Below, piece after piece: positions 1,864 through 20,788 of a DNA stretch of 21,132 nucleotides. The translations under genes were made by a program, and so were the position numbers. Source of the DNA: Promethearchaeota archaeon (GTDB lineage: Archaea; Asgardarchaeota; Lokiarchaeia; Sigyniarchaeales; SOKP01); assembly GCA_016839585.1 (NCBI GenBank), contig JAEOTZ010000027.1, forward strand, positions 1-21,132, written 5' to 3'. Below the pieces are notes generated by a model. It was given only the letters and a program-made list of their open reading frames with translations, did no database searches and had not been told where the DNA came from. Every line of letters begins with the position of its first letter. The stretch's first letter is position 1.

Positions 1864-2376
1864 GTGTACATTGACATGAGTGTCATAAATTTTGATTTTA
1901 GAAATCAGGTTATTAAGCATAATGCTTCTTTGAGTTATTGTTATCAATGTTCAACTTGCTCAGGGGGGTGTCCGGTTGCTTTATTGACAAATGGAGAGTA
2001 TAATCCAAGAAAGATAATAGAAGAAGCGATTTTAGGACTTCAAGATAAATTAATTGAAGTTCAAGATCCAAATCCATGGTTATGTTCAACATGTCAGAAA
2101 TGTGTTGAGTTATGTCCTCAAAAAGTGGAGTTAACAGAAATTTTTACTTTGATAAAAAACAAATGCTTCGAGGAGGGAAAGTATCCTGAAGCATTTCATG
2201 CACAAGGTCAAGCAGTGCTAGAAAATGGTATTGCTATTCCTTATTCAAAAGCAGTACTTTCAAGAAGAGAAAAGTTAGGACTTCCAATAATAACAACAGC
2301 CCCAATTGAGGAGATAAAAACTCTTTTAAGACAAACAAATTTTGAACAAAATATTATAAAAAGGGAGGCTGAATAG
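1864..2376 (+). CDS. hdrC: Heterodisulfide reductase subunit C
   Basis: Two [4Fe-4S] motifs (CYQCSTCSGGCP, WLCSTCQKCVELCP) and YNPRKII; directly precedes hdrB. Real start may be ATG 1876. Confidence 0.93.
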   Translation: MYIDMSVINFDFRNQVIKHNASLSYCYQCSTCSGGCPVALLTNGEYNPRKIIEEAILGLQDKLIEVQDPNPWLCSTCQKCVELCPQKVELTEIFTLIKNKCFEEGKYPEAFHAQGQAVLENGIAIPYSKAVLSRREKLGLPIITTAPIEEIKTLLRQTNFEQNIIKREAE

Positions 2377-2378
2377 AA

Positions 2379-3248
2379 ATGTCTTATGATTTATTTTTAG
2401 GGTGTGTAATTCCGGCAAGATTACCTTTTTTAGAAGCCTCTTCCAGAAAGGTTTTTGAAAAACTTGGAATTAAACTGAATGATGTAGAGGGGTTTAGTTG
2501 CTGCCCTGATCCAACAGGAATCGAACAAATAGATCATACGACCTGGTTAGCTTTGGGAGCAAGAAATCTGAGTTTATGCAGAAATAATGGGGGAGTAATT
2601 TCATTTTGTTCAGGGTGCGTAGAGACCTTAAAAGGCGTAAACTACTTTATTAATAAAGATCTTACTACTAAAAAAGAAATCAATAGATATCTGCAAAAAG
2701 TTGGCAAAGTTTATGAAGGCAAGACGGAAGTGAAACATTTTGCAGAGATACTTTATGAAAATCTTGAGAATATAAAAAAAAATGTTGAAAAACCTTTAGA
2801 AGGTTTTAAAGTTGCTGTTCATTATGGTTGTCACTATTTAAGGCCTTCAGAAATTATAGAATGGGATGATCCATTTGAACCAATTACAATTGATGAAATT
2901 GTAAAGGCACTTGGAGCAGAATCAGTAGAATATGATTTGAAAATGGAGTGTTGTGGAAATCCAGTTGAAAAATCTGATAGAGATTTGTCTCTCTTAATGA
3001 TTGATAATAAATTAAAAGCTATAGAAAATGCCGGAGCTAACTGTGTTGCTGTGGTTTGTCCTGCGTGTTATCAGCAGTATGAATTCAATCAAAGGGAACT
3101 TAATAAGAGAAACAATACTGAGTATAATTTACCAATTTTTTATCTTTCTGAGCTTGTTGGTTTAGCTTTTGGATTTTTTCCTGAAGAAATGGGTTTAAAT
3201 TTTCATAGAATTAAACCAAATGAGTTATTCGAGAGTATTCACTTTTAA
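2379..3248 (+). CDS. hdrB: Heterodisulfide reductase subunit B (two CCG domains)
   Basis: FLGCVIP, SCCPDP, FCSGC, HYGCHYLRP, ECCGNP, VCPACYQQY: ligand sets for both non-cubane clusters. GGAGG SD upstream. Confidence 0.95.
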   Translation: MSYDLFLGCVIPARLPFLEASSRKVFEKLGIKLNDVEGFSCCPDPTGIEQIDHTTWLALGARNLSLCRNNGGVISFCSGCVETLKGVNYFINKDLTTKKEINRYLQKVGKVYEGKTEVKHFAEILYENLENIKKNVEKPLEGFKVAVHYGCHYLRPSEIIEWDDPFEPITIDEIVKALGAESVEYDLKMECCGNPVEKSDRDLSLLMIDNKLKAIENAGANCVAVVCPACYQQYEFNQRELNKRNNTEYNLPIFYLSELVGLAFGFFPEEMGLNFHRIKPNELFESIHF

Positions 3249-3303
3249 TTAGAAATTTTTTAAAGTTTAAAATTCAAAAATATAAAAATTTAAGGAGTTT
3301 GTT

Positions 3304-4611
3304 ATGGAAAAGGTTTCTAAAAGCGCATTAGTTATAGGAGGAGGAATAGCTGGAATTCAAGCAGCTTTAGATCTAGCAGATATGGGCATTCATGTAGATA
3401 TGGTTGAAAAAAAACCTTGCATAGGAGGAAGGATGGCCCAATTAGATAAAACTTTTCCTACTAATGATTGTTCGATTTGTATATTAGCACCAAAATTATC
3501 AGAATGCTATAGACATCCAAATATTACTCTTTATTCTTATTCTGAAGTTCAAAAGGTTGAAGGGTCAGCAGGTAATTTTTCAGCAGAAATTCTTAAACGT
3601 GCCCGTTATATTAAAGAAGAGGAATGTATAAATTGTGGTCTCTGTGTTGAAAAATGCCCTATGCGAGTAGAGGATGAATTTGATAGAGAACTTAGGAAAA
3701 GAAGGGCTATTTATATTTATTATCTTCAAGGTGTCCCTGCGATTATGACAATAGATAAGGAGAAATGCTTATGGTTTACTAAGAATGCTTGTAGAATTTG
3801 CGAAAAAACATGTGAAAGAGAAGCAATTGATTTTGAACAAGAGGATCAAATTATTAAATTAGAAAATATCGGTTCTATCATTGTCGCAACAGGATATAGT
3901 TTAATTGAGGATATTGATAAAGATGTATTAAAGAATTATGGTTATGGGAAATTTAGAAATGTAGTTAGTGCGTTAGAATTTGAACGATTAGAGTGCGCTT
4001 CAGGACCTCAAGGAGGTCATATTAAACGATTTTCTGATGGTAAAACACCTAAAAAAATCGCTTTCCTGCAATGTATAGGTTCCCGTTCAGATAGAGTAGA
4101 GAAATATTGTTCGTCTATTTGTTGTATGTATACAACGAAAGAGGCAATGATTGCTTATGAACATGACAATGAATTAGAATCTTATGTTTTTTATATTGAT
4201 ATGAGAGCGGGAGGTAAAGGTTTTCAATCGTTTCTACGCAGAGGAGCAGCAGAATATAATATTAAATATATTAAAAGTAAAATAGCTCAAATTACTGTAG
4301 ATGAGAAGGAAAATCCTATTATAATATATGAAGATTTAGATAATGATAAAATAACACAATTAAAAGTTGATTTGGTAGTATTAGCTACGTGTATAGTACC
4401 ACCTCAAGGAATTGACAATTTAGCAGAAATATTAGGAATTGAATTAAACGACTACAATTTTATTAAAACTACACCTTTTATACCGGTTGAAACAAGTAAG
4501 AATGGCGTTTTCACTTGTGGTTGTGTACATGAACCAATGGATATTCCACGTTCTGTTGCAGAGGCAAGTGGTGCTGCCGCTAAAGCTGCTGAAATAATTA
4601 GAGGAGGCTAA
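3304..4611 (+). CDS. hdrA: HdrA-family flavoprotein, module 1 (FAD domain with inserted 2x[4Fe-4S] ferredoxin; lacks the N-terminal CHCG domain; QmoA-like/split HdrA)
   Basis: GGGIAGIQAALDLA, GGRMAQLDKTFPTNDCSIC, CINCGLCVEKCP, LEFERL, FLQCIGSR, CSSICCMYTTK. AGGAG SD. Confidence 0.92.
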   Translation: MEKVSKSALVIGGGIAGIQAALDLADMGIHVDMVEKKPCIGGRMAQLDKTFPTNDCSICILAPKLSECYRHPNITLYSYSEVQKVEGSAGNFSAEILKRARYIKEEECINCGLCVEKCPMRVEDEFDRELRKRRAIYIYYLQGVPAIMTIDKEKCLWFTKNACRICEKTCEREAIDFEQEDQIIKLENIGSIIVATGYSLIEDIDKDVLKNYGYGKFRNVVSALEFERLECASGPQGGHIKRFSDGKTPKKIAFLQCIGSRSDRVEKYCSSICCMYTTKEAMIAYEHDNELESYVFYIDMRAGGKGFQSFLRRGAAEYNIKYIKSKIAQITVDEKENPIIIYEDLDNDKITQLKVDLVVLATCIVPPQGIDNLAEILGIELNDYNFIKTTPFIPVETSKNGVFTCGCVHEPMDIPRSVAEASGAAAKAAEIIRGG

Positions 4612-4617
4612 TTAATA

Positions 4618-6303
4618 ATGTCAGAAGAAAGGAATGAGGAAGAAATAAGAGTAGGCGTGTTCGTTTGCCATTGTGGAAGCAACATCGGCGGAGTTATTGA
4701 TTGTAAGAAATTAGCGGAAGAGGTTAGAAATTTTCCAGATGTTGCTTATACTGAAGATAATTTATATACATGTTCAGAAAATGGTTTAGCTGCCATTAAA
4801 AAAGCTGTAGAAGAACATAAATTAAATAGAGTTGTAGTTGCATCATGTACTCCTAGAACACATGAACCGCTATTCCGTGAATGTATCTCAGAGGCGGGTT
4901 TGAATCCCTATCTATTTAATTTTGTAAATATTCGAGATCAGTGTACCTGGGTTCATATGAAGCATCCTGAAGAGGCTTATGATAAAGCAAAGGATTTAAT
5001 AAAGATGGGGGCAGCAAAAGCAGTGAAACTTGAACCGTTAGATATGATAATGGTCAATATCAATCCTGCTGCTTTAGTAATTGGGGGCGGTGTTGCTGGG
5101 ATGAGTGCTGCGTTAAGCCTAAGTAGACAGGGATTTAAGACGTATATAGTTGAGAAGGAAGATAAGTTAGGAGGAAGGTTAAATTCACTTCATAAATTGT
5201 TCCCTTATGATATAGAAGCAACTGAATTCGTTGGAAAAATTATTAATAATGTTAAGAATGCTCAGAATTTAGAAGTTATAACATCATCAAGGGTGATAAA
5301 TATCGAGGGTTTTATAGGAAACTATGAAGTTGAAATTGATCAAAATGGTAATATTCGAAAATTAGAGGTTGGAGCTATCATAGTTGCTGTAGGTTCTTCA
5401 CTTCTTAATCCTCAAGGGTTATTTGGATATGATGGGATTAAAAGAATTACTCAGTATGAATTAGAACCAAAATTAAAAAATAAAGATTTAAAGGCAAAAG
5501 AAGTGGTAATGATTCAATGTGCAGGTTCTCGTAATGATGAGAGACCTTATTGCTCAAGTGTTTGTTGCATGACTGCTTTAAAAAACGCACTGACAATAAA
5601 AGAGTTAAATCCTGATATTCATGTAACGATCCTATTTAGAGATTTATACACCCCTGGCACAAGTTATGAAGAATATTACAGAAAGGCAAGGGAACAAGGA
5701 GTTCTATTTGTCAAATATGATGAAGATAGAATGCCTAATGTGGAGGAAAATCAAGTTAAAGTCTTTAATGAATATATTGGGGATGAAATGATTATCGCTT
5801 ATGATCTTCTAGTATTATCAACTCCCTTAGTAGCGAATAGTGATAATAAGGATCTTGCTCAATTATTAAAAGTTCCATTAGAAGCTAATGGTTTCTTTTT
5901 AGAAGCACATGTGAAATTGCGACCCAATGATTTTGCAACAGATGGAGTTTATATTGGTGGTTCCGCCAAATGGCCTGTTGATATAACAGAAACAATATCT
6001 CAAGGTTATGCGGCAGCATCTAGAGCCAGCACAATCTTATCTCATGAGACAATTGAAGTAGAGGGTGCCACATCAATTTTGCCTGAATATAATAAGAGTT
6101 TATGTACGGGTTGTGAAGTATGCATTAAAGTATGCCCGTACAATGCGATAAAAAAGAATGAAAATGATGAGATCGAGATTATTCAAGCATTATGTAAAGG
6201 TTGTGGATTATGTGCCGCAACTTGTACTAATAAAGCTCTAGTTATTAGACATTTTACAGATGATCAGATCTTGTCAGAAATATATGCGTATGGAGGAGAA
6301 TAG
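4618..6303 (+). CDS. hdrA: HdrA-family flavoprotein, module 2 (N-terminal CHCG domain, FAD domain, C-terminal ferredoxin)
   Basis: RVGVFVCHCG, VVASCTPRTHE, GGGVAG, QCAGSR, CSSVCCMTALK, EAHVKLRP, CTGCEVCIKVCP, CKGCGLCAATC. GGAGG SD at 4603-4607. Confidence 0.92.
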   Translation: MSEERNEEEIRVGVFVCHCGSNIGGVIDCKKLAEEVRNFPDVAYTEDNLYTCSENGLAAIKKAVEEHKLNRVVVASCTPRTHEPLFRECISEAGLNPYLFNFVNIRDQCTWVHMKHPEEAYDKAKDLIKMGAAKAVKLEPLDMIMVNINPAALVIGGGVAGMSAALSLSRQGFKTYIVEKEDKLGGRLNSLHKLFPYDIEATEFVGKIINNVKNAQNLEVITSSRVINIEGFIGNYEVEIDQNGNIRKLEVGAIIVAVGSSLLNPQGLFGYDGIKRITQYELEPKLKNKDLKAKEVVMIQCAGSRNDERPYCSSVCCMTALKNALTIKELNPDIHVTILFRDLYTPGTSYEEYYRKAREQGVLFVKYDEDRMPNVEENQVKVFNEYIGDEMIIAYDLLVLSTPLVANSDNKDLAQLLKVPLEANGFFLEAHVKLRPNDFATDGVYIGGSAKWPVDITETISQGYAAASRASTILSHETIEVEGATSILPEYNKSLCTGCEVCIKVCPYNAIKKNENDEIEIIQALCKGCGLCAATCTNKALVIRHFTDDQILSEIYAYGGE

Positions 6304-6304
6304 A

Positions 6305-7066
6305 GTGAGTTTTGAACCAAAATTATTAGGATTTTTATGTAATTGGTGCTCCTATGCTGGGGCTGATTTAGCAGGAGTAAGTAGAATCCAATACCCTCCA
6401 AATATGAGAGTTATTAGAGTTATGTGTAGTGGTCGTGTTGACCCCGAATTTGTTATTCAAGCCCTTGAATTAGGAATTGATGGCGTTTATGTAATGGGGT
6501 GCCATATTGGGGATTGCCATTATCTGGATGGTAATTATGAGGCTATAAGAAAATTTGATATGACAAAGAAATTTTTAAGTTTTGTTGGTCTAGATAATAG
6601 AATAAGATTAGATTGGGTTTCTGCCTCAGAAGGAGTTAGATTTGGTGAAGTGGTTTCTAAATTTGTTGAAGATATTAAAGCTCTTGGTCCATCCCCCTTA
6701 AGTGGAGATACTCCTGATCAAGAATTACTAGAGAAAGTGAAAGCAATTAGGGAGGCAGTGAGTAGTAATAGAATGAGAGCTTTGGTAGGAAGGCAGAGAA
6801 AAATAACTGAAGAAGAGAATGTATATGGAGAGAAAGTTCCTGAAGAGGAATTTGATGTTTTGATGGATCAAGCAATAAAGGAAGAATATGATCGCCATAG
6901 AATATTATTGGCATTAGAAAAGGATTCTAAATCAGTAAAAGATTTAGGTATTGAATTAAACCTTGATCCAAGTATAGTTTTAGAGCATACGTTAACCTTA
7001 AAAAGTCGAAGTCAAGTAGATTTTCAAAAAATTATAGGAAATACTCCTATTTTTATGAGAATATAG
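6305..7066 (+). CDS. mvhD: MvhD/FlxD-like [2Fe-2S] subunit with ~110-aa C-terminal extension ending in an HTH-like segment
   Basis: FLCNWCSYAGAD, RVMCSGRVD, GCHIGDCHY, WVSASEG. Start moved to GTG 6305 (GGAGG at 6292-6296; avoids a 44-bp overlap with hdrA). Tail RILLALEKDSKSVKDLGIELNLDPSIVLEHTLTLKSRSQV. Confidence 0.9.
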   Translation: MSFEPKLLGFLCNWCSYAGADLAGVSRIQYPPNMRVIRVMCSGRVDPEFVIQALELGIDGVYVMGCHIGDCHYLDGNYEAIRKFDMTKKFLSFVGLDNRIRLDWVSASEGVRFGEVVSKFVEDIKALGPSPLSGDTPDQELLEKVKAIREAVSSNRMRALVGRQRKITEEENVYGEKVPEEEFDVLMDQAIKEEYDRHRILLALEKDSKSVKDLGIELNLDPSIVLEHTLTLKSRSQVDFQKIIGNTPIFMRI

Positions 7067-7078
7067 AGGAGAAAAAGA

Positions 7079-10000
7079 ATGGAAAAAGTGGGAGCCGTTA
7101 TGGTTATAGGTGCTGGAATTGGTGGGTCTCAAGCTTCTTTAGATTTAGCGGATTCCGGTTATAAAGTCTATTTAATAGAATCATCTACTAGTATTGGAGG
7201 AGTAATGGCACAGTTAGATAAAACATTCCCTACAAACGACTGTGCTATGTGTATAGTAAGTCCAAAGCTAGTTGAGACAGGACGTCACCAGAATATAGAT
7301 TTAAGTATTAATTGTAAAATTTTAGATGTGTCAGGAGAAGCAGGTAATTTTAATATAAAAGTCTTAAAGAAAACATTGTATATAAATCCTGAAAAATGTA
7401 CTGGATGTGGAGTTTGTGGACAGGAATGTCCTGTGGAAGCAATTGATATATTCAATGAAGGATTAGCAAAATATGCTGCAACATCAGTTAAATATCCGCA
7501 AGCAGTACCTCTTGTTTACGCTATTAATAAAGACTATTGTATCGGCTGTGGAATATGTCAAGGAGTTTGTAAAGCTAAAGCAGTAGAATATGATCGGGAA
7601 GATGAAGAAGTTGATATTAATGTTGGAGCAATAATTTTAGCTCCTGGTTTTGATGAATATATTCCACCAGAAGCTAATTTATATGGATATGGAAAGTATA
7701 AGAATGTAGTAACTAGTATAGAGTTTGAACGTATTTTAAGTGCTAGTGGTCCATATGCAGGTAGGGTTTTACGTCCTTCAGATGGGGATATTCCTGAAAA
7801 ATTAGCTTTTCTCCAATGTATTGGTTCTCGTGATTATACAGGAAATGGACAACCATATTGTTCTTCAGTTTGTTGTATGTATACAGCTAAAGAGGCAGTA
7901 ATTGCCCATGAGCATATGCATCAAATAAAACCGACGATCTTTAGTATGGACGTAAGAGCTTATGGAAAAGATTTTGATAAATATATTATTAGAGCCCAAG
8001 AGGAATATGGGGTTCAATATATAAGAAGTCGTATCTCATCTATAAAAGAAGTACCAGAAACTAAAGATTTAAGGATAAAATATGAAACTGAAGATGGAAA
8101 AGTAATGGAAGAAGATTTTAACATGGTAGTCCTTGCTGTTGGGTTAAATCCTCCTAATGATAATGTTTTTCTCGCAGAAAAGTTTGGTATTGAATTAAAT
8201 GAATTTGGGTTTGCTAAAACTGACAAATTTAACCCAGTTCAAACATCAAGATCAGGAATTTATGCATGTGGAGCTTTCTCATCGCCTAAAGATATTCCTG
8301 ATACTGTAACACAGGCTAGCGCGGCTGCCGGTTGTGTTAATCAACTTTTATATGAAAAAAGAGGGACATTAATTACAGAAAAAACTCTACCTCCTGAAAT
8401 TTATGTAAATGGACAACCACCTAGAATTGGTGTATTTATCTGTCATTGTGGAATTAATATTGGTGGCTATGTGGATGTTCCAGACGTGACAAAATATGCC
8501 ACTACTCTCCCTAATGTAGTTATGGCAGATCGTAATCTATATACTTGTTCAGCAGATACTCAGACGATAATAAAAGATAAGGTAAAGGAATTTCATCTTA
8601 ATCGTGTTATTGTTGCATCATGTACTCCTAGAACACATGAGCCTTTATTTCAAGAGACCATTAGAGAAGCAGGATTAAATAGGTATTTATTTCAAATGGC
8701 AAATATTAGAGATCAATGTTCTTGGGTACATATGAACGAGCCAGAAAAGGCTACAGAAAAGGCTAAGGATTTAGTAAGAATGGCAGTAAATAAAGCGAGA
8801 GAAATAGAGCCTATTGAAAGGATAAAATTACCAGTTACTCCTAAAGCACTGGTTGTTGGAGGAGGAATAAGTGGTATGGTTGCTGCTTTAAATTTTGCTA
8901 GCCAAGAATTTGAGACTTTTTTAGTTGAAAAGCAAGAAGAATTAGGAGGCTTTGCTAGACACATATATCATACCCTTGAAGGTGGCGATGTTCAAGAATT
9001 TCTAACCGATTTAATAAAAAAAGTGCAATCAAATAAATTTATTCACGCATATACAGATGCAGAAATTGAAAATATTGATGGATATATCGGTAATTTTAAG
9101 AGTTCAGTCATCCATGGAAAGAAGAAAGAAAGAACAGAATTCGAACATGGAGTAGTTATTGTAGCAACAGGTGCAAAAGAATATCACCCTAAAGAATACT
9201 TATATGGGAATAATGGTAATGTAATTCTTCAGTCTGAGTTCGAAGAGATGCTAAATAATGATAAGGCAACAAATAAAAAATCAGTTGTGATGATTCAATG
9301 TGTAGGATCCAGAAACGATGAACATCCTTACTGTAGTAAAATGTGCTGTGCTGAAGCAATTAAAAATGCGCTATTAGCTAAAGAAAAAAATCCAGATCTA
9401 GAAATAACAGTATTATTCCGAGACATCCGAACTTATGGATTTAAAGAAAAATATTATCGTGAAGCACGTGAAAAGGGAGTTATATTCCTACAATATGATG
9501 AAGATAATCCTCCAGAAGTAATCCCAGAAGATTCACGATTAAGAATTGAAGTTTCCACACCAAGAAAAGAAAAAATATATATTAATTCTGATTTATTAGT
9601 TTTAAGTGCTGGAATATATGCAAACCGAGAGGAAAATGAAGATCTTGCCAAGATGTTGAAGGTTCCTCTTAATGATGATAATTTCTTTTTGGAAGCCCAT
9701 GTTAAGTTACGTCCTGTAGATTTTGCCACCGAAGGCGTATTTGTAGCAGGCTTAGCACATTGTCCGAAGACAATTGAAGATTCTATTGCTCAGGCAAATG
9801 CTGCAGTTTCAAGAGCTTGCACTATATTATCTAAAGATGAAATAGAAGCTGAAGGTAAGACTGCAATGGTTATTCCTGAAAGATGCACAGGGTGTGGTAT
9901 GTGTGTCGAGAATTGTGCATATAGCGCAATAGAGTTAATCGATGACCGAAGGTTTGGAAGGGTTGCCCAAATTAACCAAGCGTTATGTAAAGGTTGTGGG

Positions 10001-10090
10001 GCTTGCTCAGGAAATTGTAGATGCGCTGCAATAGATGTACTAGGCTTCTCGGGAGAACAAATATTTGCGATGATAACTGGGAGGTGCTAA
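7079..10090 (+). CDS. hdrA: Large two-module HdrA (two FAD domains; BamE-like architecture)
   Basis: First half colinear with 3304-4611 (GAGIGG, LDKTFPTNDC, CSSVCCMY); second half colinear with 4618-6303 (RIGVFICHCG, SCTPRTHE, EAHVKLRP, C-terminal ferredoxin). AGGAG SD at 7067-7071. Confidence 0.93.
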   Translation: MEKVGAVMVIGAGIGGSQASLDLADSGYKVYLIESSTSIGGVMAQLDKTFPTNDCAMCIVSPKLVETGRHQNIDLSINCKILDVSGEAGNFNIKVLKKTLYINPEKCTGCGVCGQECPVEAIDIFNEGLAKYAATSVKYPQAVPLVYAINKDYCIGCGICQGVCKAKAVEYDREDEEVDINVGAIILAPGFDEYIPPEANLYGYGKYKNVVTSIEFERILSASGPYAGRVLRPSDGDIPEKLAFLQCIGSRDYTGNGQPYCSSVCCMYTAKEAVIAHEHMHQIKPTIFSMDVRAYGKDFDKYIIRAQEEYGVQYIRSRISSIKEVPETKDLRIKYETEDGKVMEEDFNMVVLAVGLNPPNDNVFLAEKFGIELNEFGFAKTDKFNPVQTSRSGIYACGAFSSPKDIPDTVTQASAAAGCVNQLLYEKRGTLITEKTLPPEIYVNGQPPRIGVFICHCGINIGGYVDVPDVTKYATTLPNVVMADRNLYTCSADTQTIIKDKVKEFHLNRVIVASCTPRTHEPLFQETIREAGLNRYLFQMANIRDQCSWVHMNEPEKATEKAKDLVRMAVNKAREIEPIERIKLPVTPKALVVGGGISGMVAALNFASQEFETFLVEKQEELGGFARHIYHTLEGGDVQEFLTDLIKKVQSNKFIHAYTDAEIENIDGYIGNFKSSVIHGKKKERTEFEHGVVIVATGAKEYHPKEYLYGNNGNVILQSEFEEMLNNDKATNKKSVVMIQCVGSRNDEHPYCSKMCCAEAIKNALLAKEKNPDLEITVLFRDIRTYGFKEKYYREAREKGVIFLQYDEDNPPEVIPEDSRLRIEVSTPRKEKIYINSDLLVLSAGIYANREENEDLAKMLKVPLNDDNFFLEAHVKLRPVDFATEGVFVAGLAHCPKTIEDSIAQANAAVSRACTILSKDEIEAEGKTAMVIPERCTGCGMCVENCAYSAIELIDDRRFGRVAQINQALCKGCGACSGNCRCAAIDVLGFSGEQIFAMITGRC

Positions 10091-10094
10091 AAAG

Positions 10095-10547
10095 ATGACA
10101 TTACAAACAAAACAAGAAGAGAAAATAAATGAAGAATGGGAACCGAAAATTATTGCATTTTTATGTAATTGGTGCTCCTATGCCGGAGCAGATTTGGCGG
10201 GAGTTAGTAGAATTCAATATCCTCCTACTATTAGAGTTGTGAGGGTTCCATGTTCCGGTAGAGTGAACCCCTACTTTATTATTAAGAGTCTGATGGATGG
10301 GTGGGATGGAGTTGTTGTTTCTGGTTGCCATCCTGGTGATTGTCATTATCTTACGGGAAATTTAGTAGCAAGAAGGCGATTTGCTATATTGAAAGAATTA
10401 TTAGAATTTTTTGGTATAGAGCCAGGAAGAGTTAATTTTATGTGGGCTTCTGCTGCTGAGGGTGAACGTTTTGCCACTTTAATTAAAAAAGCTACAAAAA
10501 TAGTTAAAAATTTGGGACCAAATAAAAAATTTGAAAAGAAATGGTGA
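10095..10547 (+). CDS. flxD: MvhD/FlxD [2Fe-2S] subunit
   Basis: FLCNWCSYAGAD, RVPCSGRVN, GCHPGDCHY, WASAAEG; lies between hdrA and the flxC-like gene. Confidence 0.88.
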   Translation: MTLQTKQEEKINEEWEPKIIAFLCNWCSYAGADLAGVSRIQYPPTIRVVRVPCSGRVNPYFIIKSLMDGWDGVVVSGCHPGDCHYLTGNLVARRRFAILKELLEFFGIEPGRVNFMWASAAEGERFATLIKKATKIVKNLGPNKKFEKKW

Positions 10548-11572
10548 TGATTATGGGAATTGAGGCTGAAAATAAGGAAATCGAAAATTCAATGAGGGAA
10601 ACAGCAAGAAAACTACTTAAAGAGAAAGAAGTAGATGTAATAATTGGGTATACGAAGGGGACTGTTCCCTTAAGTTCAGCACCAATAATGATAACTAAAG
10701 AGGAAGATGTTGATAAATTAATCTGGAATAATCTATGTTATGTAAATTTAGCTAAATATCTAGTACCTAAAATACCTCAACTCATTGATCCTGAAAAAGG
10801 AGATTTAAAAGTAGGAATAGTGTCAAAAGGTTGTGTTGGACGAGCATTAATTCATTTATCAGTGGAAAAGCAAATTGATCTAGAAAATATTAAGATGATT
10901 GGAATTCCATGTAATGGTATAATAAATCGAAAAAGAATCGAGAAGGAGATTGGTGAAAAAGAGATTTTAGAATTTTTTACGTCTGAAAATGATATAATTG
11001 TAAAAGGAAAGGGTTTTGAACAGAAATTTTCTTATGATGAGTATATCAATGAATTATGTAAGGTTTGTAAAGTTAAAGCTCCTCCAACATTAGCAGAATT
11101 AGCAGAAACATGTGTTGGTGAATGTAAAGAAATAAGTTCAGTAGATGATGATTTTGAGGATTTAATAGAATTTGAATCAAAATCATCTGAAGAGAAATGG
11201 GAATATATTAAAGATTCATTAGAGACATGCACGAAATGCTATGCTTGTAGAGAGGCATGTCCAATGTGTTATTGTAATTTATGTTTTGTTGATCAAAATA
11301 AACCAATTTGGTTTGGGAAAACAACAGATTTATCTGATATAATTGTATTTCATTTAGTTAGGTCTATGCATCTGGCAGGTCGATGTGTAGCATGTGGCGC
11401 GTGTAGTAGCGTTTGTCCTGTGGGAATTGATTTAAATTTAATTACAAGAAAATTAGAAAAAATAGTTAAAGAAAGATTTAATTTCACATCTGGTATAGAT
11501 CCCAAGAAAACTCCACCCATGATGGATTTTAGGATGGATGATGCAGAAGAGTTTATGTTAGAAGAAGATTAA
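10541..11572 (+). CDS. flxC: FlxC-like Fe-S protein (FdhB/FrhB-like N-terminus, C-terminal 2x[4Fe-4S])
   Basis: VDVIIGYTKG...NLAKYL...KGC, CKVC, CTKCYACREACPMCYCNLC, HLAGRCVACGACSSVCP; gene order matches hdrCBA-flxDCBA. Start possibly ATG 10553 (GGTGA SD). Confidence 0.8.
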   Translation: MVMIMGIEAENKEIENSMRETARKLLKEKEVDVIIGYTKGTVPLSSAPIMITKEEDVDKLIWNNLCYVNLAKYLVPKIPQLIDPEKGDLKVGIVSKGCVGRALIHLSVEKQIDLENIKMIGIPCNGIINRKRIEKEIGEKEILEFFTSENDIIVKGKGFEQKFSYDEYINELCKVCKVKAPPTLAELAETCVGECKEISSVDDDFEDLIEFESKSSEEKWEYIKDSLETCTKCYACREACPMCYCNLCFVDQNKPIWFGKTTDLSDIIVFHLVRSMHLAGRCVACGACSSVCPVGIDLNLITRKLEKIVKERFNFTSGIDPKKTPPMMDFRMDDAEEFMLEED

Positions 11573-11604
11573 AAAGGTGATAAATAATAGATCAAAAATT
11601 ATTA

Positions 11605-12648
11605 ATGAAAAATGAAATAGGGAAGCTTTATATTGAATTGGGCGAAGAATATAATTTCTTTGCTCCAATAAAGGAAAAGGGTAATTTAGTATTTAAAAAA
11701 ATCTTAAATCCTGATGACATTATATTAGATTACTTTAATTCAAAAGTTCCACCAAAAGAAATCTTGTTTCCAAAAACGGAGGTATTATTTGAATATAAAA
11801 CTGATGGAAAAGAGGTAACGGAGATTATTGAAAGAAAAGATTTGGAGGAGAAGAACATTATTTTTGGAATTAGGCCATGTGATGCTCATGCATTTGTACT
11901 TATGGAAAACTTTTTTGCATTTGGGGATTATCAAGATGAAATCTTTTTGAAGAAAAGAGAAAATTCCATTATCATTGGAGTTGGCTGTAATAATCCAAAA
12001 AGCACCTGTTTTTGCACATCAGTAGAAGGTCATCCCTTTCAAAAAGATGATATGGATATCTTTTTGGTAGATTTAGGAGAAAAATATTTAGTTGAGGCGA
12101 TAAGTGAAAAAGGTAAAAATTTAATGAATAAAATGCCATGGCTGAAGAATGCAACTAAAAAGGATGTGCAAAAAGCCGCAGAATTATCTAAACAAGCAGA
12201 AGAATCCATTGTTACCAAATTAGATTTAAAAGATATTGAAAAAGTTCTTGATCCTAATTTTGATCATCCAATATGGAGAGAAGTCAGTGAAATTTGTATA
12301 GGATGTGGTACTTGTTCTTTCTTATGTCCAACATGTACCTGTTTTGATGTTATTGATGATAATGATCAATACAATAATCGAGGTAGAAGAATTAGAATTT
12401 GGGATACTTGTCAATTCTGTCTATATTCACTTCATACAAGTGGTCATAATCCTCGAGATAGCTGTATTGAACGCTGTAGAAATAGAATTTTACATAAATT
12501 CTGCTATTATCCTGAGAATTATAACACATTAGGTTGTGTTGGATGTGGTCGATGTATTCAACTGTGCCCTGTTAACAATGATCTTAGATCAATAATCGAA
12601 AAAATTAAGAAAATTGACATAAAAAAGGAGGAGAAAATAAGTGCCTAA
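11605..12648 (+). CDS. flxB: FlxB / AsrA-like / sulfhydrogenase beta-like Fe-S protein
   Basis: PPKEILFP, FGIRPCD, CFCTS, CIGCGTCSFLCPTCTCF, WDTC, CVGCGRCIQLCP. The N-terminus may extend to an ATA at 11587. Confidence 0.85.
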   Translation: MKNEIGKLYIELGEEYNFFAPIKEKGNLVFKKILNPDDIILDYFNSKVPPKEILFPKTEVLFEYKTDGKEVTEIIERKDLEEKNIIFGIRPCDAHAFVLMENFFAFGDYQDEIFLKKRENSIIIGVGCNNPKSTCFCTSVEGHPFQKDDMDIFLVDLGEKYLVEAISEKGKNLMNKMPWLKNATKKDVQKAAELSKQAEESIVTKLDLKDIEKVLDPNFDHPIWREVSEICIGCGTCSFLCPTCTCFDVIDDNDQYNNRGRRIRIWDTCQFCLYSLHTSGHNPRDSCIERCRNRILHKFCYYPENYNTLGCVGCGRCIQLCPVNNDLRSIIEKIKKIDIKKEEKISA

Positions 12649-13480
12649 TCCGTATATCCCTATACTTACTTCAGTTAAAAATATTGTTTCAGAAAATGAA
12701 GTAAATGATATAAAAACTCTCGAATTGGTGTTTAAGAAAGAAGAAGATTATAAAGGTTTCAACTATATTCCTGGCCAATTCGCTGAAATAAGCTTAATAG
12801 GAAAGGGGGAATGCCCTATTGGTATAGCCTCATCTCCAACTGAAGAAGGTTCTATTAAATTCACGATCAAGAAGATGGGAACTGTAACTACAGGATTTCA
12901 TAATTGTGATTTGGGAGATATTGTAGGAGTAAGAGGCCCTTTAGGTAATGGCTGGCCAATTGAAGAAATGAAAGGCAAAAATATTGTAATAATTGGAGGC
13001 GGATTTGCATTTTCAACCTTAAGATCTCTAGTCATATATTTGTTGGATAAAAGATATAGAAAAAATTATAAAGATATTACTGTGATTTATGGCAACCGTG
13101 ATTCTGGTGAAGTTTTATATCGAGATATCCTTGAAGAATGGGAAAAAAGAGATGATATTAAAGTAGTTCTAACCATTGATCGTGAAGAGGAAGGATGGAC
13201 TCGCGAAGTAGGGTTTGTTGCAGCAATAGTTAAGAAAGTTGCTCCATCTCCTAATAACGCTATGGCAGTAGTTTGTGGACCACCCATAATGATTAGGACT
13301 GCTGTAGCTGAATTGGTAAATCTAGGTTGGAAGGACGAGCAAATTTTAAATTCATTAGAGATGAGAATGAAGTGCGGAATTGGTAAATGTGGAAGATGCA
13401 ATATCGGTAATAAATTTGTGTGTATTGATGGACCAGTTTTTTCACTGGCAGAACTTAAGAAATTACCTAATGAATATTAA
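12641..13480 (+). CDS. flxA: FlxA / AsrB / PyrK-family FAD- and NAD(P)H-binding [2Fe-2S] oxidoreductase
   Basis: PGQF, IASSP, RGPLGNGW, IIGGG, VCGPPIM, LEMRMKCGIGKCGRC...VCIDGPVF; GTG start with GGAGG SD. Confidence 0.9.
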   Translation: MPNPYIPILTSVKNIVSENEVNDIKTLELVFKKEEDYKGFNYIPGQFAEISLIGKGECPIGIASSPTEEGSIKFTIKKMGTVTTGFHNCDLGDIVGVRGPLGNGWPIEEMKGKNIVIIGGGFAFSTLRSLVIYLLDKRYRKNYKDITVIYGNRDSGEVLYRDILEEWEKRDDIKVVLTIDREEEGWTREVGFVAAIVKKVAPSPNNAMAVVCGPPIMIRTAVAELVNLGWKDEQILNSLEMRMKCGIGKCGRCNIGNKFVCIDGPVFSLAELKKLPNEY

Positions 13481-13522
13481 ATTAATTGATTAAAAAGGAA
13501 AAAGAAAAGAGGTTAAAAAAAA

Positions 13523-14635
13523 ATGGTTGAAGAAGTTCTACCTAAATCTTTTGAAGATTTAATAAAAGATGTCCATGAACCAGGTATTTGTGGAGAATGT
13601 GGGGGATGTGTTAGCTTTTGCTCGGCTCATGAGATAAAAGCAATTGAGATGTCCGAAACAGGACCTCCAAGATATTATAATAAAGATAATTGCCTAAAAT
13701 GTGGGATTTGTTATTTAGTATGCCCTCAAACTCACATCTTAGATAATGAATTAAATGATAAGTATCATTATAAAGTATCTATTGGTAATTGGACAAAAAT
13801 TGCATCAAGTCAAGCCGCTTCAGAGGAAATTAGGAGAAATGCAACAGATGGTGGTGTTGTAACTGCGATTTTAATGTATTTATTAGATAAAAACTTAATA
13901 AACGGAGCTATTGTCTCAAAAAAAGAAGGTCCATTTAATAGAGTTCCTTTCTTCGCTACAACGAAAGAGGAATTAATAGAAGCTGCAGGATCTCACTATG
14001 AAATCTCACAGGGAGTTGTAAGCTTAGAGAAATATAATTCATTTGTACCCTCGATCACAAAACTAAAAACAGTTGTGAGTTCTGATGCAATGAGCATTGC
14101 TGTTGTTGGTACACCATGTCAGATAAACTCTATTAGAAAGATGCAGGAATTAAGCATTTTACCTGCTCATATTGTAAAATATACATTTGGCTTATTTTGT
14201 AATTTGAATTTCTCATTTAATGCCGAAGCTCGTATAAAATTAGAAGAAAAATTTGATTTCTTATTTGAGGATGTGGAGAAGTTAAACATCAAAGAAAATC
14301 TAATTATACAGCTTAAGAATAATCGAGTAAAATACATAGATTTTAAAGACATTCATGAATTTGCAAGACCAGCGTGCTTTGCTTGTCGAGATTTCTCTAA
14401 TGTCTATGCTGATATTTCTTTTGGAGGATTAGGTTCAAAAGATGGATATACTACATCAATTATTAGAACCAATATCGGTAAAAAAATATACAATAATGCT
14501 TTAAAAAAAGGTTATATAAAAGAATCCTCTGAACTTAATACATCAGTAAAGAAATCAGAAATGCTAGCTAAAATTATAAGCTTTGGGAAAAGAAAATTTG
14601 AGAGATACAATAAAGCATTAAAAAAAAGGAAATAG
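13523..14635 (+). CDS. Coenzyme F420 hydrogenase/dehydrogenase beta subunit (FrhB/FpoF/FqoF-like) with N-terminal ferredoxin
   Basis: CGECGGCVSFC, CLKCGICYLVCP, DGGVVT, AAGSHY, VVGTPCQ, GLFC, CFACRDF...ADISFGGLG. Confidence 0.9.
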   Translation: MVEEVLPKSFEDLIKDVHEPGICGECGGCVSFCSAHEIKAIEMSETGPPRYYNKDNCLKCGICYLVCPQTHILDNELNDKYHYKVSIGNWTKIASSQAASEEIRRNATDGGVVTAILMYLLDKNLINGAIVSKKEGPFNRVPFFATTKEELIEAAGSHYEISQGVVSLEKYNSFVPSITKLKTVVSSDAMSIAVVGTPCQINSIRKMQELSILPAHIVKYTFGLFCNLNFSFNAEARIKLEEKFDFLFEDVEKLNIKENLIIQLKNNRVKYIDFKDIHEFARPACFACRDFSNVYADISFGGLGSKDGYTTSIIRTNIGKKIYNNALKKGYIKESSELNTSVKKSEMLAKIISFGKRKFERYNKALKKRK

Positions 14636-14641
14636 GTAAAA

Positions 14642-14671
14642 TTATTTATTTTTTTATTTCTTCTTTTATTT
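14642..14671 (+). terminator. T-rich terminator candidate at the end of the hdr/flx operon
   Basis: T-tracts immediately after the frhB-like stop codon. Confidence 0.45.
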
Positions 14672-14676
14672 CGTAA

Positions 14677-14904: not shown

Positions 14905-15711
14905 ATGATTTATATGAGAGATAAAAGAGCTATCATCATAAAAAACCCACGGCTGCAGAAAATAAGAAACAATTTGCGACGTCTTCTCCTTGCAGTTGTG
15001 AGTGTTAAATGGAACAAATTATTTGATGAAATGGATAGATTAAGATACACACCTGGAGGGACTCGAAGAACTGTCGATGATTTTACTTCAGATGAACTCC
15101 GAGAATATAGAGCTTATCAAGCACAGCAAAATGATCTTAGGAAGCTATCAGATAAATCCATCTGTAAGTGCGTAATGTGCGGGAAGGCGGATCGAGATAT
15201 GGTGTACAATAAAGCCTACGACGCGTGGTATTGTACCTTCTGTTATGGTCTAGAACTTGCCTCCGCCAGACAACGATTGGATATAAAACCTTATCTTCAA
15301 CTACCAGAGGATCACCCTTTCTTTACTGGTAAAGATCTTGAAATTTATAATACTCTTATGACAGAAATCGATTTATTTATAGATTACTTTATCCTCGAGA
15401 ATCTCATGATGTACCACAGAAATATTGATGAGAATGATATTAGAAATGAATTTAAAAAGCTACCAAGTAAACTCCAAAAACTCTGGATTCTTGAAGCTTG
15501 GCTTTTTAATACTAACTTCTCGGAAAATCTTAGAAAATTCAACGAAAAAAGAAAAGAGGTTAAAAAAAAACCATCAAATTATAAATTTAACACTTATATT
15601 TTCCAAGTACAATCCTTACCTGAAGATATAAGCTCTAAACGAAGATCATCCAGGAAGTTTAGGTCGCACGAAGATGAAGCTGTCGAGAGTCACTCCAAGA
15701 CCTTCCTGTAA
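14905..15711 (+). CDS. Hypothetical protein with Zn-finger-like CxCxxC...CxxC motif
   Basis: 268-aa ORF with ICKCVMCGKADRDMVYNKAYDAWYCTFCY; followed by T-tracts. Probable start ATG 14914. Confidence 0.75.
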   Translation: MIYMRDKRAIIIKNPRLQKIRNNLRRLLLAVVSVKWNKLFDEMDRLRYTPGGTRRTVDDFTSDELREYRAYQAQQNDLRKLSDKSICKCVMCGKADRDMVYNKAYDAWYCTFCYGLELASARQRLDIKPYLQLPEDHPFFTGKDLEIYNTLMTEIDLFIDYFILENLMMYHRNIDENDIRNEFKKLPSKLQKLWILEAWLFNTNFSENLRKFNEKRKEVKKKPSNYKFNTYIFQVQSLPEDISSKRRSSRKFRSHEDEAVESHSKTFL

Positions 15712-15963: not shown

Positions 15964-17109
15964 TTAGAAGCATCGGTGAATTACTTGCGGTCCCATCTCC
16001 TTATATTCACGCCTTGTTACCCACATGCGATGGAAAGTCTTAAGTGAGCTGAGGATTGAGCCGCCTATCCATACGGAATACATACGCTCAGGTGGTGCGA
16101 TTATTTTAACATCTACCGATTCAGGAATTTGCTCCTTAATTTCCTTCGTGAGTCTTTCCTTTATGCCAGGGAACATGGTGCTGCCGCCCGAAAGAACGAT
16201 GTTGCTATACAAGTCTCTTCTTAGGTCAACGTCGCACTCGGAAATGGAGCCTACGATCACGTCATCCAGTGGTTCAAGCTCTTTCCCGATTACACTCGGA
16301 TTGAAAAGGCACTCTGGTCCGAGAAATCGTTCCACGCCAACCATAATGGTCTCTCCGTCAGGGAGCATGTAGCTTTTCTCCATTCCGGCGACCTTCTTCG
16401 AAAGCATCATTTCTTTTTCTGGATCTATGGCCACGTAACACAATTTCTCCTTGATATCTCTCACAATCTCCTTTTCGGCAGAGGTCGTAAAAGAGTACCC
16501 TTTCTGTCTAAGTAATCTTTGTAAATAATTGGTAATATCTCGCCCAGCTAGATCAATTCTTTGGATGGCATGGCTTAAAGCAAAGCCCTCGAAAATTGGT
16601 ACAACGTGGGAAACTCCATCGCCAATATCTATAACGCATCCTGTTGTACGACCTGAAGCGTAGAGGGACAATACTGCTTGCATGGCTACATAAAGTGCTG
16701 GAGTATTGAAAGTTTCAAACATAATCTCTGCCATTTTTTCCCGATTTGGTCTTGGATTTAAGGGAGCTTCGGTCAAAAGTACAGGGTGTTCACTAGGATC
16801 AATTCTGAGGTCTGTATAAAAGGTGTAATGCCAAATTTTTTCCATAGCTGTCCAGTCTTCTATAATACCATGCTCAACTGGAAACATTAATTTGAGTACA
16901 CCTTTTAGTTGCATTGCTTCTTCTCCGATGTAATATTCCCTTGTATAGTGCTCAACATCTGTCATTATAGATTCATACTTTGGATAACCTATAAGGGTCG
17001 GGAATACTGATCGAGGTTGATCTTCTCCAGCGAAGCCGTTTTTTGAAATGCCAGTACCATTATCAACCACAAGTGCCTTAGCGCTTAAAAAGCTTTCTTC
17101 TTCTGCCAT
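15964..17109 (-). CDS. Asgard actin (Lokiactin)
   Basis: Eukaryote-like actin motifs throughout: [153 protein letters not shown]-terminal HRCF. Confidence 0.98.
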
Positions 17110-19042: not shown

Positions 19043-19619
19043 GAAAAATCTCTATCTCTTTGTTTTTTAGGTAATCATCAATCCATATTTCCATTAATGT
19101 CTCATCATAATAATTTGAATCTATATAAAATTGATTTTTTCTTATCCCTATGATTCTAAAACCTAATTTTTTATAAAGATGTTTTGCTCTTTCATTATTT
19201 GAGAAACAGCTTAAGATAATTTTTTCTTTATGATTTAAATGTTTAGATGCTTTTATTGCTATATCAATTAAATTTCTGCCGATACCTAAGTCGCGATACT
19301 TTCTTTTAACTATAATACCTAATAAACCAACATGAGAAGCAGCATCCCATTCTGAGTTTGAAATCTCACAATGGCCAATAATATTATATGGAGGATTACG
19401 TTCTGGGAGTTCAGCAATAAAACATATCTCATTTTCTTTTTTAATATTATGATACCAAGATTCTTTCTCTAATTGAGTTCTTACTGGATAAAAAACAGGA
19501 ATGTATATTCCTTCTTCTATGACTTCATTGAAATTGTCCCAAACGCCTTCTACATCAGATTTTTTTATATGTCTAAAGATAATTTTTTCTCTGTTTTTTA
19601 ACTCTAAGACCTTTTTCAT
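19029..19619 (-). CDS. GNAT family N-acetyltransferase
   Basis: Motif A LGIIVKRKYRDLGIGRNLI and motif B NNERAKHLYKKLGF; overlaps the convergent LRR gene by 14 bp. Confidence 0.9.
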   Translation of the reverse strand: MKKVLELKNREKIIFRHIKKSDVEGVWDNFNEVIEEGIYIPVFYPVRTQLEKESWYHNIKKENEICFIAELPERNPPYNIIGHCEISNSEWDAASHVGLLGIIVKRKYRDLGIGRNLIDIAIKASKHLNHKEKIILSCFSNNERAKHLYKKLGFRIIGIRKNQFYIDSNYYDETLMEIWIDDYLKNKEIEIFLMDI

Positions 19620-20254: not shown

Positions 20255-20788
20255 ATGCTTGAAGGTAAGAATGTGAATTTGAGGATTCGTGAGAAGGAGG
20301 ATTTACCACTGATTGCAGAATGGTTTAATAATCCAGAGTTCTGGGGTGCATTTTTTTCACCTCTACAGAGGTCCAGATTAGAGATGAAAAAGGCACAGGA
20401 TAATAATCCTTTTGAATTTGAGAGTTTCATTATTGAGAAGAAAGACGGAACCAAAATTGGTCTTATATCTTACTTTAACATGTTGCATCCCATGGGGAAA
20501 TTGTTGGAAATTGGTTTTACTTTAGTTCCAAATGAAAGGAGAAAAGGCTACTGCACTGAAGCTGCCAAGATTATGGTTGACTATTTGTTTCTTTCAAAAG
20601 AAATAGTCTGTATCCAAGCCCTTACTGATATCGGAAATGTAGCTTCTCAGAAAGTTTTAGAAAATGTCGGTTTTAAAAAGGAAGGAGTGATTCGTAAACG
20701 TTTTTTCACAAGAGGAGAATGGAGAGAAATTTGGTTTCATAGTATTCTCAGAGAAGAATGGAAAGAACCAAAAATTTTAAAAAATTAA
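20255..20788 (+). CDS. RimJ/RimL-like GNAT N-acetyltransferase
   Basis: LEGKNVNLR, EIGFTLVPNERRKGYCTEA, NVASQKVLENVGFKKEGVIR, SILREEW. Confidence 0.92.
   Translation: MLEGKNVNLRIREKEDLPLIAEWFNNPEFWGAFFSPLQRSRLEMKKAQDNNPFEFESFIIEKKDGTKIGLISYFNMLHPMGKLLEIGFTLVPNERRKGYCTEAAKIMVDYLFLSKEIVCIQALTDIGNVASQKVLENVGFKKEGVIRKRFFTRGEWREIWFHSILREEWKEPKILKN

Follow-up and report, generated by a model that had tools for sequence, protein, structure and literature searches.

A hydrogenase-free Flx-Hdr operon with two asymmetric HdrA units and an FrhB-like gene in a Promethearchaeota archaeon: known modules in a new, conserved arrangement

The eukaryotic host lineage has its nearest known relatives in the Asgard archaea, and models of their syntrophic life hinge on the balance of NADH, F420H2, ferredoxin and H2 or formate. 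Among heterodisulfide reductase (Hdr) systems, the FlxABCD-HdrABC of Desulfovibrio vulgaris and syntrophic bacteria is reportedly the one described by Ramos et al. in 2015. Hdr genes are among the most abundant and most expressed energy genes of Asgard archaea (PMC11291895); Imachi et al. mention Flx-Hdr in these organisms (PMC7015854), and Orsi et al. consider it. Without CoM-S-S-CoB and DsrC, the substrate and the donors of Asgard Hdr enzymes are open questions. Here we describe an operon at positions 1864-14635 of contig JAEOTZ010000027.1 of a Promethearchaeota archaeon (assembly GCA_016839585.1), in which an Flx arm is joined to two asymmetric HdrA units, each with an MvhD connector, and to an FrhB-like gene; the modules are known ones, and their combination is new and conserved. 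The window analyzed is the whole 21,132-bp contig (C10), which belongs to a genome of 3.45 Mb that is 99% complete.

In solved complexes of the Fdh-Hdr and Elp-Hdr type, HdrA's N- and C-terminal domains form, together with MvhD, a mobile donor arm serving the FAD of the partner HdrA, with FdhB or ElpB as the subunit beside MvhD in that arm (PMC12350162). High-potential electrons pass via the cluster of the partner FAD domain to HdrC and HdrB, and low-potential electrons leave via an inserted ferredoxin domain (PMC12350162). F420H2 can drive Hdr bifurcation in ElpABC-HdrABC (PMC12350162), and F420H2-driven Hdr also appears in the title of PMC5296606. In the tandem and fused HdrA proteins of anaerobic methanotrophic archaea (ANME) and Moorella, Chadwick et al. 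described the N-terminal domain and Cys197 as complementary, and the idea that such proteins act as heterodimers is found in the same paper (PMC9012536). Lyu et al. present type II HdrA as a fusion of A6- and A12-like classes (PMC12054007). FwdI, finally, serves as the plug-in F420-reductase module in the Fwd complex of Ca. Ethanoperedens, a complex that reduces F420 in assays (PMC11493965).

The operon consists of 11 open reading frames (ORFs), all on the + strand, in the order hdrC, hdrB, hdrA_a, hdrA_b, mvhD1x, hdrA_L, mvhD2/flxD, flxC, flxB, flxA and the frhB-like gene, with spacers of -44 to +55 nucleotides (nt) between them and 269 nt devoid of ORFs after the last. A previous sequence-only reading of this DNA had proposed a single, tightly packed, co-oriented set of 11 genes, had named them, and had noted that neither a hydrogenase nor an FdhA catalytic gene is among them. 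ORF coordinates and spacers bear out the layout, family matches in Pfam and NCBIfam bear out the gene identities, and in profile searches of the same two collections no NiFe hydrogenase or molybdopterin family matched an operon ORF, nor was an FdhA/ElpA-like partner subunit found among the ORFs of the window. The frhB stop codon is followed directly by T runs (14636-14675, +), a T-rich tract that likely marks the end of the transcription unit, and the 42-nt spacer between flxA and frhB is A-rich, contains no T run and carries GAGGT ahead of the ATG. From the spacing, the T-rich tract after frhB and the lack of one before it, we infer co-transcription through frhB. A scan for sigma-70 promoters and hairpins, which does not apply to archaea, returned the same counts as shuffled sequence.

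The canonical single HdrA of about 650 amino acids is absent from the operon and is replaced by a pair of 435 and 561 amino acids, hdrA_a (3304-4611, +) and hdrA_b (4618-6303, +), and by a 1003-amino-acid protein, hdrA_L (7079-10090, +). These pieces were compared by alignment with two solved HdrA chains, 5ODC_A and 8RVU_a, and with one another. Against the HdrA2 model NF040770, hdrA_a covers positions 137-563 and represents a 'core' half, hdrA_b covers positions 1-232 plus about 319-647 and represents an 'arm' half, and hdrA_L, a fused 'type II' HdrA, scores 977 bits in three stretches. In hdrA_L the core half (residues 1 to ~440) precedes the arm half (~441-1003), its residues 8-371, 446-607 and 856-1000 corresponding to 155-517, 10-171 and 511-650 of 8RVU_a. 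Residues 8-242 and 235-555 of hdrA_b correspond to 2-236 and 305-646 of 5ODC_A; residues 237-304 of the latter have no counterpart, and I and T occupy the places of Cys194 and Cys197.

The two kinds of half are complementary in their domains. Both core halves (hdrA_a and residues 1 to ~440 of hdrA_L) contain a thioredoxin-reductase-type FAD domain with the inserted 2x[4Fe-4S] ferredoxin domain, carry the Fe-S cluster from which the path to HdrC starts, and keep a DCxxC motif with the Cys197 equivalent (DCSIC in hdrA_a); neither has the N-terminal domain, and hdrA_a has no C-terminal HdrA domain either. The arm halves (hdrA_b and the rest of hdrA_L) retain the N-terminal Fe-S domain and the C-terminal domain, the latter a 2x[4Fe-4S] ferredoxin domain in hdrA_b, and have an FAD domain without the inserted ferredoxin domain and without Cys194 and Cys197. 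GxGxxG, the equivalents of E356 and K409, and Cys386/399/403/404 are retained in each of the four halves, and each unit has two thioredoxin-reductase FAD domains, in one chain (hdrA_L) or in tandem genes (hdrA_a and hdrA_b). To judge from these alignments, the pieces make up two pseudo-dimers, both asymmetric and both of the type II or tandem kind known from the literature. Since each arm half with its MvhD would feed its own core-half FAD, two bifurcation paths are expected rather than four, with probably only one complete path per pseudo-dimer. The four HdrA flavin sites counted in the sequence-only reading are thus retained as four FAD-type domains, and it is as complete paths that their number probably falls to one per pseudo-dimer.

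The split pair and hdrA_L are 45% identical and fall into separate, well-supported clades in a tree of core halves, and are therefore old paralogues; a recent tandem duplication of two HdrA-MvhD modules is ruled out by the same identity and by the age and separation of the clades. Selenocysteine read-through joining hdrA_a to hdrA_b, which are in the same frame and 6 nt apart, was considered as well and is ruled out by the stop codon, which is TAA, not TGA. The operon offers a natural split-versus-fused pair for the study of asymmetric HdrA.

Each unit is followed by a gene for an MvhD-type [2Fe-2S] connector. The ORF of mvhD1x (6290-7066, +; FlpD 170 bits) is open from 6260, with a start near 6290 more likely than one at 6260. 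The N-terminal part of its AlphaFold2 (AF2) model matches MvhD 5ODH_D with a template-modelling (TM) score of 0.82, and is followed by a Cys-free helical C-terminal extension of ~120 amino acids (window positions 6722-7066). The extension is kept in 17 of 17 orthologues, one of them from a metagenome-assembled genome (MAG) of the Anaerolineae; in Pfam it gives only a weak match to HTH_5 (winged helix-turn-helix-like), and a search of the whole model against solved folds returned nothing significant beyond MvhD chains. The second connector, mvhD2 or flxD (10095-10547, +; FlpD 175.7 bits), is 77% identical to the flxD of a canonical flx-hdr cluster elsewhere in the genome, on contig C26.

The three remaining Flx genes follow. 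FlxC (10541-11572, +), whose gene overlaps flxD by 7 nt, is an Fe-S subunit of FdhB/ElpB (FrhB-superfamily) fold: it matches FdhB 7BKB_E in two stretches (phmmer E 5.6e-29), and the best Foldseek matches of its AF2 model (predicted local distance difference test, pLDDT, 87.5) are FdhB 7bkb_E (E 3e-16) and ElpB 8rvu_E (E 5e-13). An alignment of homologues shows invariant Cys clusters, the middle of the FrhB-type (flavin) domain is shorter than in FdhB, and neither PF04422 nor PF04432 was detected in FlxC by Pfam search. FlxC is probably the partner of FlxD, and its fold is a possible explanation for the docking of the Flx arm on FlxD/MvhD. The protein is usually described as an Fe-S protein only. 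FlxB (11605-12648, +) is HydB/AsrA-like (Fer4_22 100.5 bits; PDB 9NEZ_B 167 bits; HydB 184 and AsrA 140 bits, both under the cut-offs). FlxA (12641-13480, +) matches NAD_binding_1 (PF00175, 56 bits), DHODB_Fe-S_bind (PF10418, 40.5 bits) and FAD_binding_6 (PF00970, 23 bits), and FlxA and FlxB together resemble the gamma and beta subunits of NADPH-dependent sulfhydrogenase and AsrB/AsrA. That FlxA would be the NAD(P)H port, as previously suggested, agrees with these domains, which are those of an NAD(P)H-type flavoprotein with FAD and a [2Fe-2S] site.

The last gene of the operon, frhB-like (13523-14635, +), encodes a protein that scores above the cut-offs for PF04422 (FrhB_FdhB_N, 68.8 bits) and PF04432 (FrhB_FdhB_C, 124.3 bits), with N-terminal dicluster 2x[4Fe-4S] motifs and four further Cys. 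Its best PDB match, over the full length, is FwdI (8RJA_E, 169 bits), and its nearest solved relatives, FwdI, CdhZeta, FrhB and Fsr, are all F420-reactive. A genome search found CofG (365 bits), CofH (468), CofD (308) and CofE (261), all over curated cut-offs. The F420 port of the sequence-only reading, for which a genome without F420 synthesis had been named as a counter-argument, is in keeping with a complete set of these four enzymes and with a protein that appears to be an F420-reductase-type module closest to FwdI among solved structures. Mer, considered as a further F420-dependent marker, gave only sub-threshold luciferase-like matches in the genome and was not used.

The arrangement is conserved. 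In a FlxA-centred scan of species-representative genomes, loci were annotated for the best 80 of at least 572 confirmed relatives; counts across these relatives are not phylogenetically independent. The block hdrA_a-hdrA_b-mvhD(extended)-hdrA_L-mvhD-flxC-flxB-flxA was found in at least 16 archaeal loci, with the first HdrA pair fused in one (L033), and in one Anaerolineae MAG (L044). FlxA is 74-91% identical in Asgard loci and 50-58% in Flx clusters of Syntrophales and Desulfacinum. Of 301 genomes sampled from the phylum, 64 have the extended MvhD, which served as a marker, as do 52 of the 68 genomes of the host's family, and the number of HdrA-MvhD modules varies among relatives.

An frhB orthologue lies 21-54 nt 3' of flxA in 9 of the 14 archaeal double clusters with downstream room, and in four further loci, truncated on their upstream side, flxA is likewise followed by frhB; it is found in none of the canonical single-HdrA Flx clusters (0 of 7). 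Another FrhB gene precedes hdrA_a in eight double clusters, and in the four of these studied in full it encodes 368-374 amino acids, is 33-36% identical to the operon FrhB and sits between hdrB and hdrA_a. At least one FrhB gene accompanies each of the double clusters for which there is enough context (L026, cut off upstream, is left out of this count). In the FrhB tree the downstream proteins group together in a single clade (98% support), whose sister group consists of the FrhBs from two clusters on contigs C45 and C47 of the same genome (97%), and the upstream proteins form a separate clade (100%). The earlier proposal had made the F420 port depend on frhB being linked in relatives, and FrhB-type genes are indeed linked to the double-cluster type. 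The hdrB-hdrA_a spacer of the present operon (3249-3303, 55 nt), the exact site of the extra FrhB gene in relatives, contains a T6 run and TATA-like A/T boxes and may hold an internal attenuator or promoter.

Related assemblies occur in bacteria. Large HdrA-MvhD units are paired with flxCBA, without FrhB, in Desulfacinum, Syntrophales, WOR-3 and Stahlbacteria; in Desulfacinum (L046) and WOR-3 (L069) a type II HdrA-MvhD stands directly with flxCBA and clusters with hdrA_L in the core-half tree. Double HdrA-MvhD modules with Flx also lie on bacterial MAG contigs, namely L044 (Anaerolineae, with the extended MvhD), and L059 and L069 (Stahlbacteria, WOR-3), which suggests that the entire cluster was transferred laterally or that the contigs were mis-binned.

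The genome has about ten Hdr loci, this operon among them, together with 13 FrhB-family matches, 13 MvhD matches, four of which contain a pair of in-frame TGA codons, ~20 CCG proteins and two loci for NiFe hydrogenases. By tblastn and ORF mapping, contig C26 carries a canonical hdrC-hdrB-hdrA(666 amino acids)-flxD-C-B-A cluster with Flx genes 71-91% identical to those of the operon, and contigs C45 and C47 carry the two clusters frhB-frhB-hdrCB(fused)-type II hdrA-mvhD. Because both kinds of module also stand separately in the genome, the operon looks like a mosaic of an Flx module and FrhB/type II HdrA modules. Convergent with the canonical cluster on contig C26 is a giant ORF (56981-61927, +) that resembles a type II HdrA into which ~470 amino acids are inserted and to which an MvhD is fused; its family measures 1571-1654 amino acids and is kept in L008, L024, L031, L035 and L011. 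At five further positions (C45:34324-36459, C47:148938-150981, C59:33916-35670, C79:46983-49170 and C90:31423-33506) HdrA appears as two adjacent pieces of ~100 and ~450 amino acids, and the MvhD gene beside them has two in-frame TGA except at C59; these loci fit the selenoprotein HdrA/MvhD pairs of Asgard archaea (PMC11227280).

The reading we prefer, to which we give an even chance, is that the operon encodes a soluble, hydrogenase-free HdrABC-type system for flavin-based bifurcation or confurcation, with two parallel units and with NAD(P)H and F420H2 as donors. Each HdrA unit would act as a built-in heterodimer in which the arm half passes electrons to the core-half FAD, and this FAD would split them between ferredoxin, via the inserted domain, and HdrC/HdrB; such a mechanism is suggested for each unit by the complementary domain loss in the HdrA halves and by analogy with the mobile arm. 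Each unit has its own MvhD connector. Electrons of NAD(P)H would enter through FlxA and pass by way of FlxB, FlxC (as an FdhB/ElpB-like adaptor) and FlxD to the arm of hdrA_L, and those of F420H2 would enter through the FrhB-like module and pass, most likely via the extended MvhD, to the arm of hdrA_b. The units would most likely form two parallel complexes drawing on the same HdrBC, ferredoxin and disulfide, an arrangement ranked above a single supercomplex because the pseudo-dimers are self-contained and the modules are separate, and variable in number, elsewhere. The reading further draws on the FdhB/ElpB fold of FlxC, on the four Cof enzymes and the nearness of the FrhB-like protein to FwdI, on the FrhB genes that accompany double clusters but none of the seven canonical ones, on the single clade of the downstream FrhBs, and on the bacterial clusters in which a type II HdrA-MvhD is paired directly with flxCBA and groups with hdrA_L.

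Several observations weigh against this reading. The operon has one hdrCB pair only, for two HdrA units; the FAD-site residues are kept in the arm halves too, so that a flavin role is possible there; and no structure of a type II HdrA was found in the copy of the PDB that was searched, which returned only canonical chains of 643-671 amino acids. On the donor side, we infer F420 binding by the FrhB-like protein from its sequence, and the FrhB superfamily has members that do not use F420. Moreover, frhB here adjoins flxA and not the first HdrA unit, which makes the donor-to-arm wiring uncertain, and in L012, L013 and L022 there are two FrhB genes for two units. Phylogeny was tried as a means of assigning donors to HdrA units and did not give a clean result: the HdrA of contig C45, which is linked to FrhB, falls in the hdrA_L clade. 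Given the position of frhB next to flxA, the two FrhB genes of some relatives and an HdrA tree that is not sorted by donor, the FrhB wiring is the weakest step of the proposed mechanism.

Were all 11 products to form one supercomplex on the single HdrBC, fed by both NAD(P)H and F420H2 and possibly bifurcating in series, the single operon with its one hdrCB pair and near-zero spacers would be readily accounted for, as would the joint inheritance of the whole gene set in at least 16 archaeal genomes; serial bifurcation was proposed by Lyu et al. for clusters with a type II HdrA and an extra HdrA (PMC12054007). We nonetheless consider such an assembly unlikely. The HdrA-HdrA interface is already satisfied within each pseudo-dimer, nothing is known that would join the units, the same module types stand apart in the genome (flx-hdr on contig C26, FrhB and type II HdrA on C45 and C47), and the varying number of modules in relatives suggests independent, stackable units. 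A single multi-input complex at one HdrB is an assumption of the sequence-only reading, and a pair of complexes with HdrBC in common would fit no worse.

The location of frhB directly 3' of flxA (42 nt here, 21-54 nt in relatives) also lends itself to a different wiring, in which the terminal FrhB belongs to the Flx arm, FlxABC and FrhB equilibrating or selecting between NAD(P)H and F420H2, and the first HdrA unit with its extended MvhD docks a donor whose genes lie outside the operon, for example a hydrogenase or a formate dehydrogenase. The second FrhB of relatives lies directly before the first unit, some of these relatives also keep the copy after flxA, the conserved MvhD extension could be a docking domain, and the genome has its two NiFe hydrogenase loci outside the operon. 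Five archaeal double clusters, however, have no downstream frhB (four have the upstream copy only, and L026 is cut off upstream); the downstream copy is therefore dispensable for the Flx arm, FrhB is absent from bacterial Flx clusters, and we regard this wiring as quite unlikely. Very unlikely, in our estimate, is an FrhB-like subunit that does not use F420 and serves as a flavin/Fe-S electron-transfer module or acts on another substrate, leaving NAD(P)H as the sole feed. Its scores do lie under the FrhB, FpoF and PRK09325 cut-offs (equivalog models TIGR03289, 174 versus 331.5 bits, and NF040616, 98 versus 475 bits), PF04432 also matches genomes that lack F420, such as a Bacteroides control, and some of the 13 FrhB-family matches in the genome probably have other roles; on the other side stand the full F420 pathway, the F420 reactivity of all the closest solved relatives and an architecture of N-terminal ferredoxin plus FrhB domain that is the same as in FwdI.

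For the preferred reading of two parallel units, the acceptor side would consist of HdrC and HdrB. The ORF of hdrC (1876-2376, +; Fer4_8 43.6 bits) is open from GTG 1864, and ATG 1876 is the more likely start because orthologues align from residue 5; the protein has two [4Fe-4S] motifs, CxxCxxCxxxCP, at its residues C26-C36 and C74-C84. In HdrB, the disulfide-reducing subunit (2379-3248, +; PF02754 in two stretches, 84 bits), both CCG motifs are intact (Cys 9/41/42/77/80 and 151/191/192/227/230). Both proteins score below the CoB-CoM equivalog cut-offs (HdrC against TIGR03290, 106.7 versus 160 bits; HdrB against TIGR03288, 285.9 versus 345 bits), and neither McrA nor DsrC (PF04358) was found in the 99%-complete genome. 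DsrC and CoM-S-S-CoB were accordingly ruled out as substrates of HdrB. The lack of McrA is in line with the non-methanogenic Asgard host assumed beforehand, and with DsrC missing and the equivalog scores low, the disulfide substrate stands as the open question that it was then said to be.

Upstream of hdrC lies a gene for an 89-amino-acid protein (1419-1688, +) in which eight Cys are invariant across 17 aligned homologues (C-x2-C-x-C ... C ... CC-x2-C ... C); a T10 tract follows the stop codon of the gene. It has no Pfam or NCBIfam match and belongs to an Asgard-specific family whose nearest Atlas clusters come from Promethearchaeota only. Homologues adjoin hdrC, in either orientation, in all nine hdrC-upstream stretches of relatives examined (L081-L084 and L085-L089), two or three tandem paralogues are present in the closest relatives, and in four further relatives the best match in the genome is upstream of the operon on the same contig. 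The 8-Cys protein occurs in 53 of 301 sampled genomes, 48 of which also have the extended-MvhD marker, 29 with the two on the same contig a few kb apart. Within the host's family, its own genome included, 47 genomes have both, 6 the marker only, 5 the Cys-rich protein only and 11 neither; outside the family, with this query, 15 of 16 marker-positive genomes gave no match. This weakens the case for an obligatory partner, and the gene is for that reason a linked accessory gene, not an obligatory part.

Possible roles of the 8-Cys protein are those of a redox partner, of a carrier of Fe-S or metal, and of a sensor. A far-reaching version of this, which we put forward as a long shot, is that the two asymmetric HdrA units, the Flx arm and FrhB make up one Asgard-specific machine coupling the NAD(P)H and F420H2 pools to ferredoxin, with HdrB acting on the 8-Cys protein and not on a small-molecule heterodisulfide. 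If true, this protein would be a dedicated thiol/disulfide (or Fe-S) partner, in the role that DsrC has in sulfate reducers.

Adjoining the 5' end of the operon is a gene for an Lrp/AsnC-type regulator (428-859, -; HTH_24 and AsnC_trans_reg), homologues of which (72-79% identity) neighbour the Cys-rich gene and hdrC in at least three relatives (L081-L083); the protein may regulate the operon. On the other side lies a 268-amino-acid ORF (14905-15711, +) with no match in Pfam and NCBIfam and with three partial paralogues in the genome (C45, C57 and C61). It is followed by a Lokiactin gene (Pfam Actin, 445 bits) head-to-head with a gene for a leucine-rich-repeat protein (15964-17109, -, and 17597-19042, +), and after this pair by two GNAT acetyltransferases (19029-19619, -, and 20255-20788, +). 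The actin gene and the nearest contigs, which come from Promethearchaeota MAGs, place the host among Loki-type Asgard archaea.

What the operon defines is an Hdr system that is conserved, lacks a hydrogenase, has two donor ports that can be identified and follows a clear modular logic of core half, arm half, connector and donor; it also points to a linked Cys-rich protein as a testable partner candidate. The possibility that the same arrangement had been characterized elsewhere holds for its parts, since there are publications on Asgard Flx-Hdr, on fused HdrA and on Hdr driven by F420H2, and not for the combination: in a literature search that was not exhaustive, no paper was found on this combination, on an FdhB-fold FlxC or on the linked 8-Cys protein.

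Among the known systems, FlxABCD-HdrABC shares with this operon the contiguous, single-orientation order hdrC-hdrB-hdrA...flxD-flxC-flxB-flxA, the NAD(P)H flavoprotein FlxA, the Fe-S proteins FlxB and FlxC and the MvhD-like FlxD. The present operon differs in having two asymmetric HdrA units, each with an MvhD, and an appended FrhB-like gene, and in that DsrC, the proposed acceptor in sulfate reducers, was not found here. The type II and tandem HdrA proteins of ANME and Methanosarcinales resemble those described here in their complementary N-terminal domain and Cys197 and in keeping E356 and K409, and their clusters likewise have MvhD and an FrhB-family F420 subunit alongside (PMC9012536, PMC12054007). 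According to the same sources, those clusters include a degenerate molybdopterin (FdhA-like) subunit and act on CoM-S-S-CoB in archaea that have Mcr, whereas here there is an Flx NAD(P)H arm, and neither an FdhA-like gene nor Mcr was found. The order of the halves is different as well, the core half coming first here, unlike in Chadwick's description of HdrA3/4 (PMC9012536).

With ElpABC-HdrABC (8RVU, PMC12350162) and FdhAB-MvhD-HdrABC (7BKB) the operon has in common an FdhB-fold subunit together with an MvhD connector, FlxC being shorter than FdhB and ElpB in the region of the F420-reductase domain; those complexes combine a canonical homodimeric HdrA with an ElpA or FdhA partner, which is missing here. 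The FrhB-like protein has the same N-terminal 2x[4Fe-4S] plus FrhB-type FAD/[4Fe-4S] domain as FwdI and CdhZeta of Ca. Ethanoperedens (8RJA, 8RIU; PMC11493965), and like them would be attached to a non-hydrogenase Fe-S enzyme; their partners are Fwd and carbon monoxide dehydrogenase, not Hdr, and F420 is the acceptor there. MetFV-HdrABC-MvhD of Moorella thermoacetica, also from a non-methanogen, provides a parallel for a fused two-module HdrA with complementary domain loss, accompanied by MvhD and HdrBC, and in that system the partner is methylene-tetrahydrofolate reductase, in place of the Flx and FrhB modules of the operon described here (PMC9012536).

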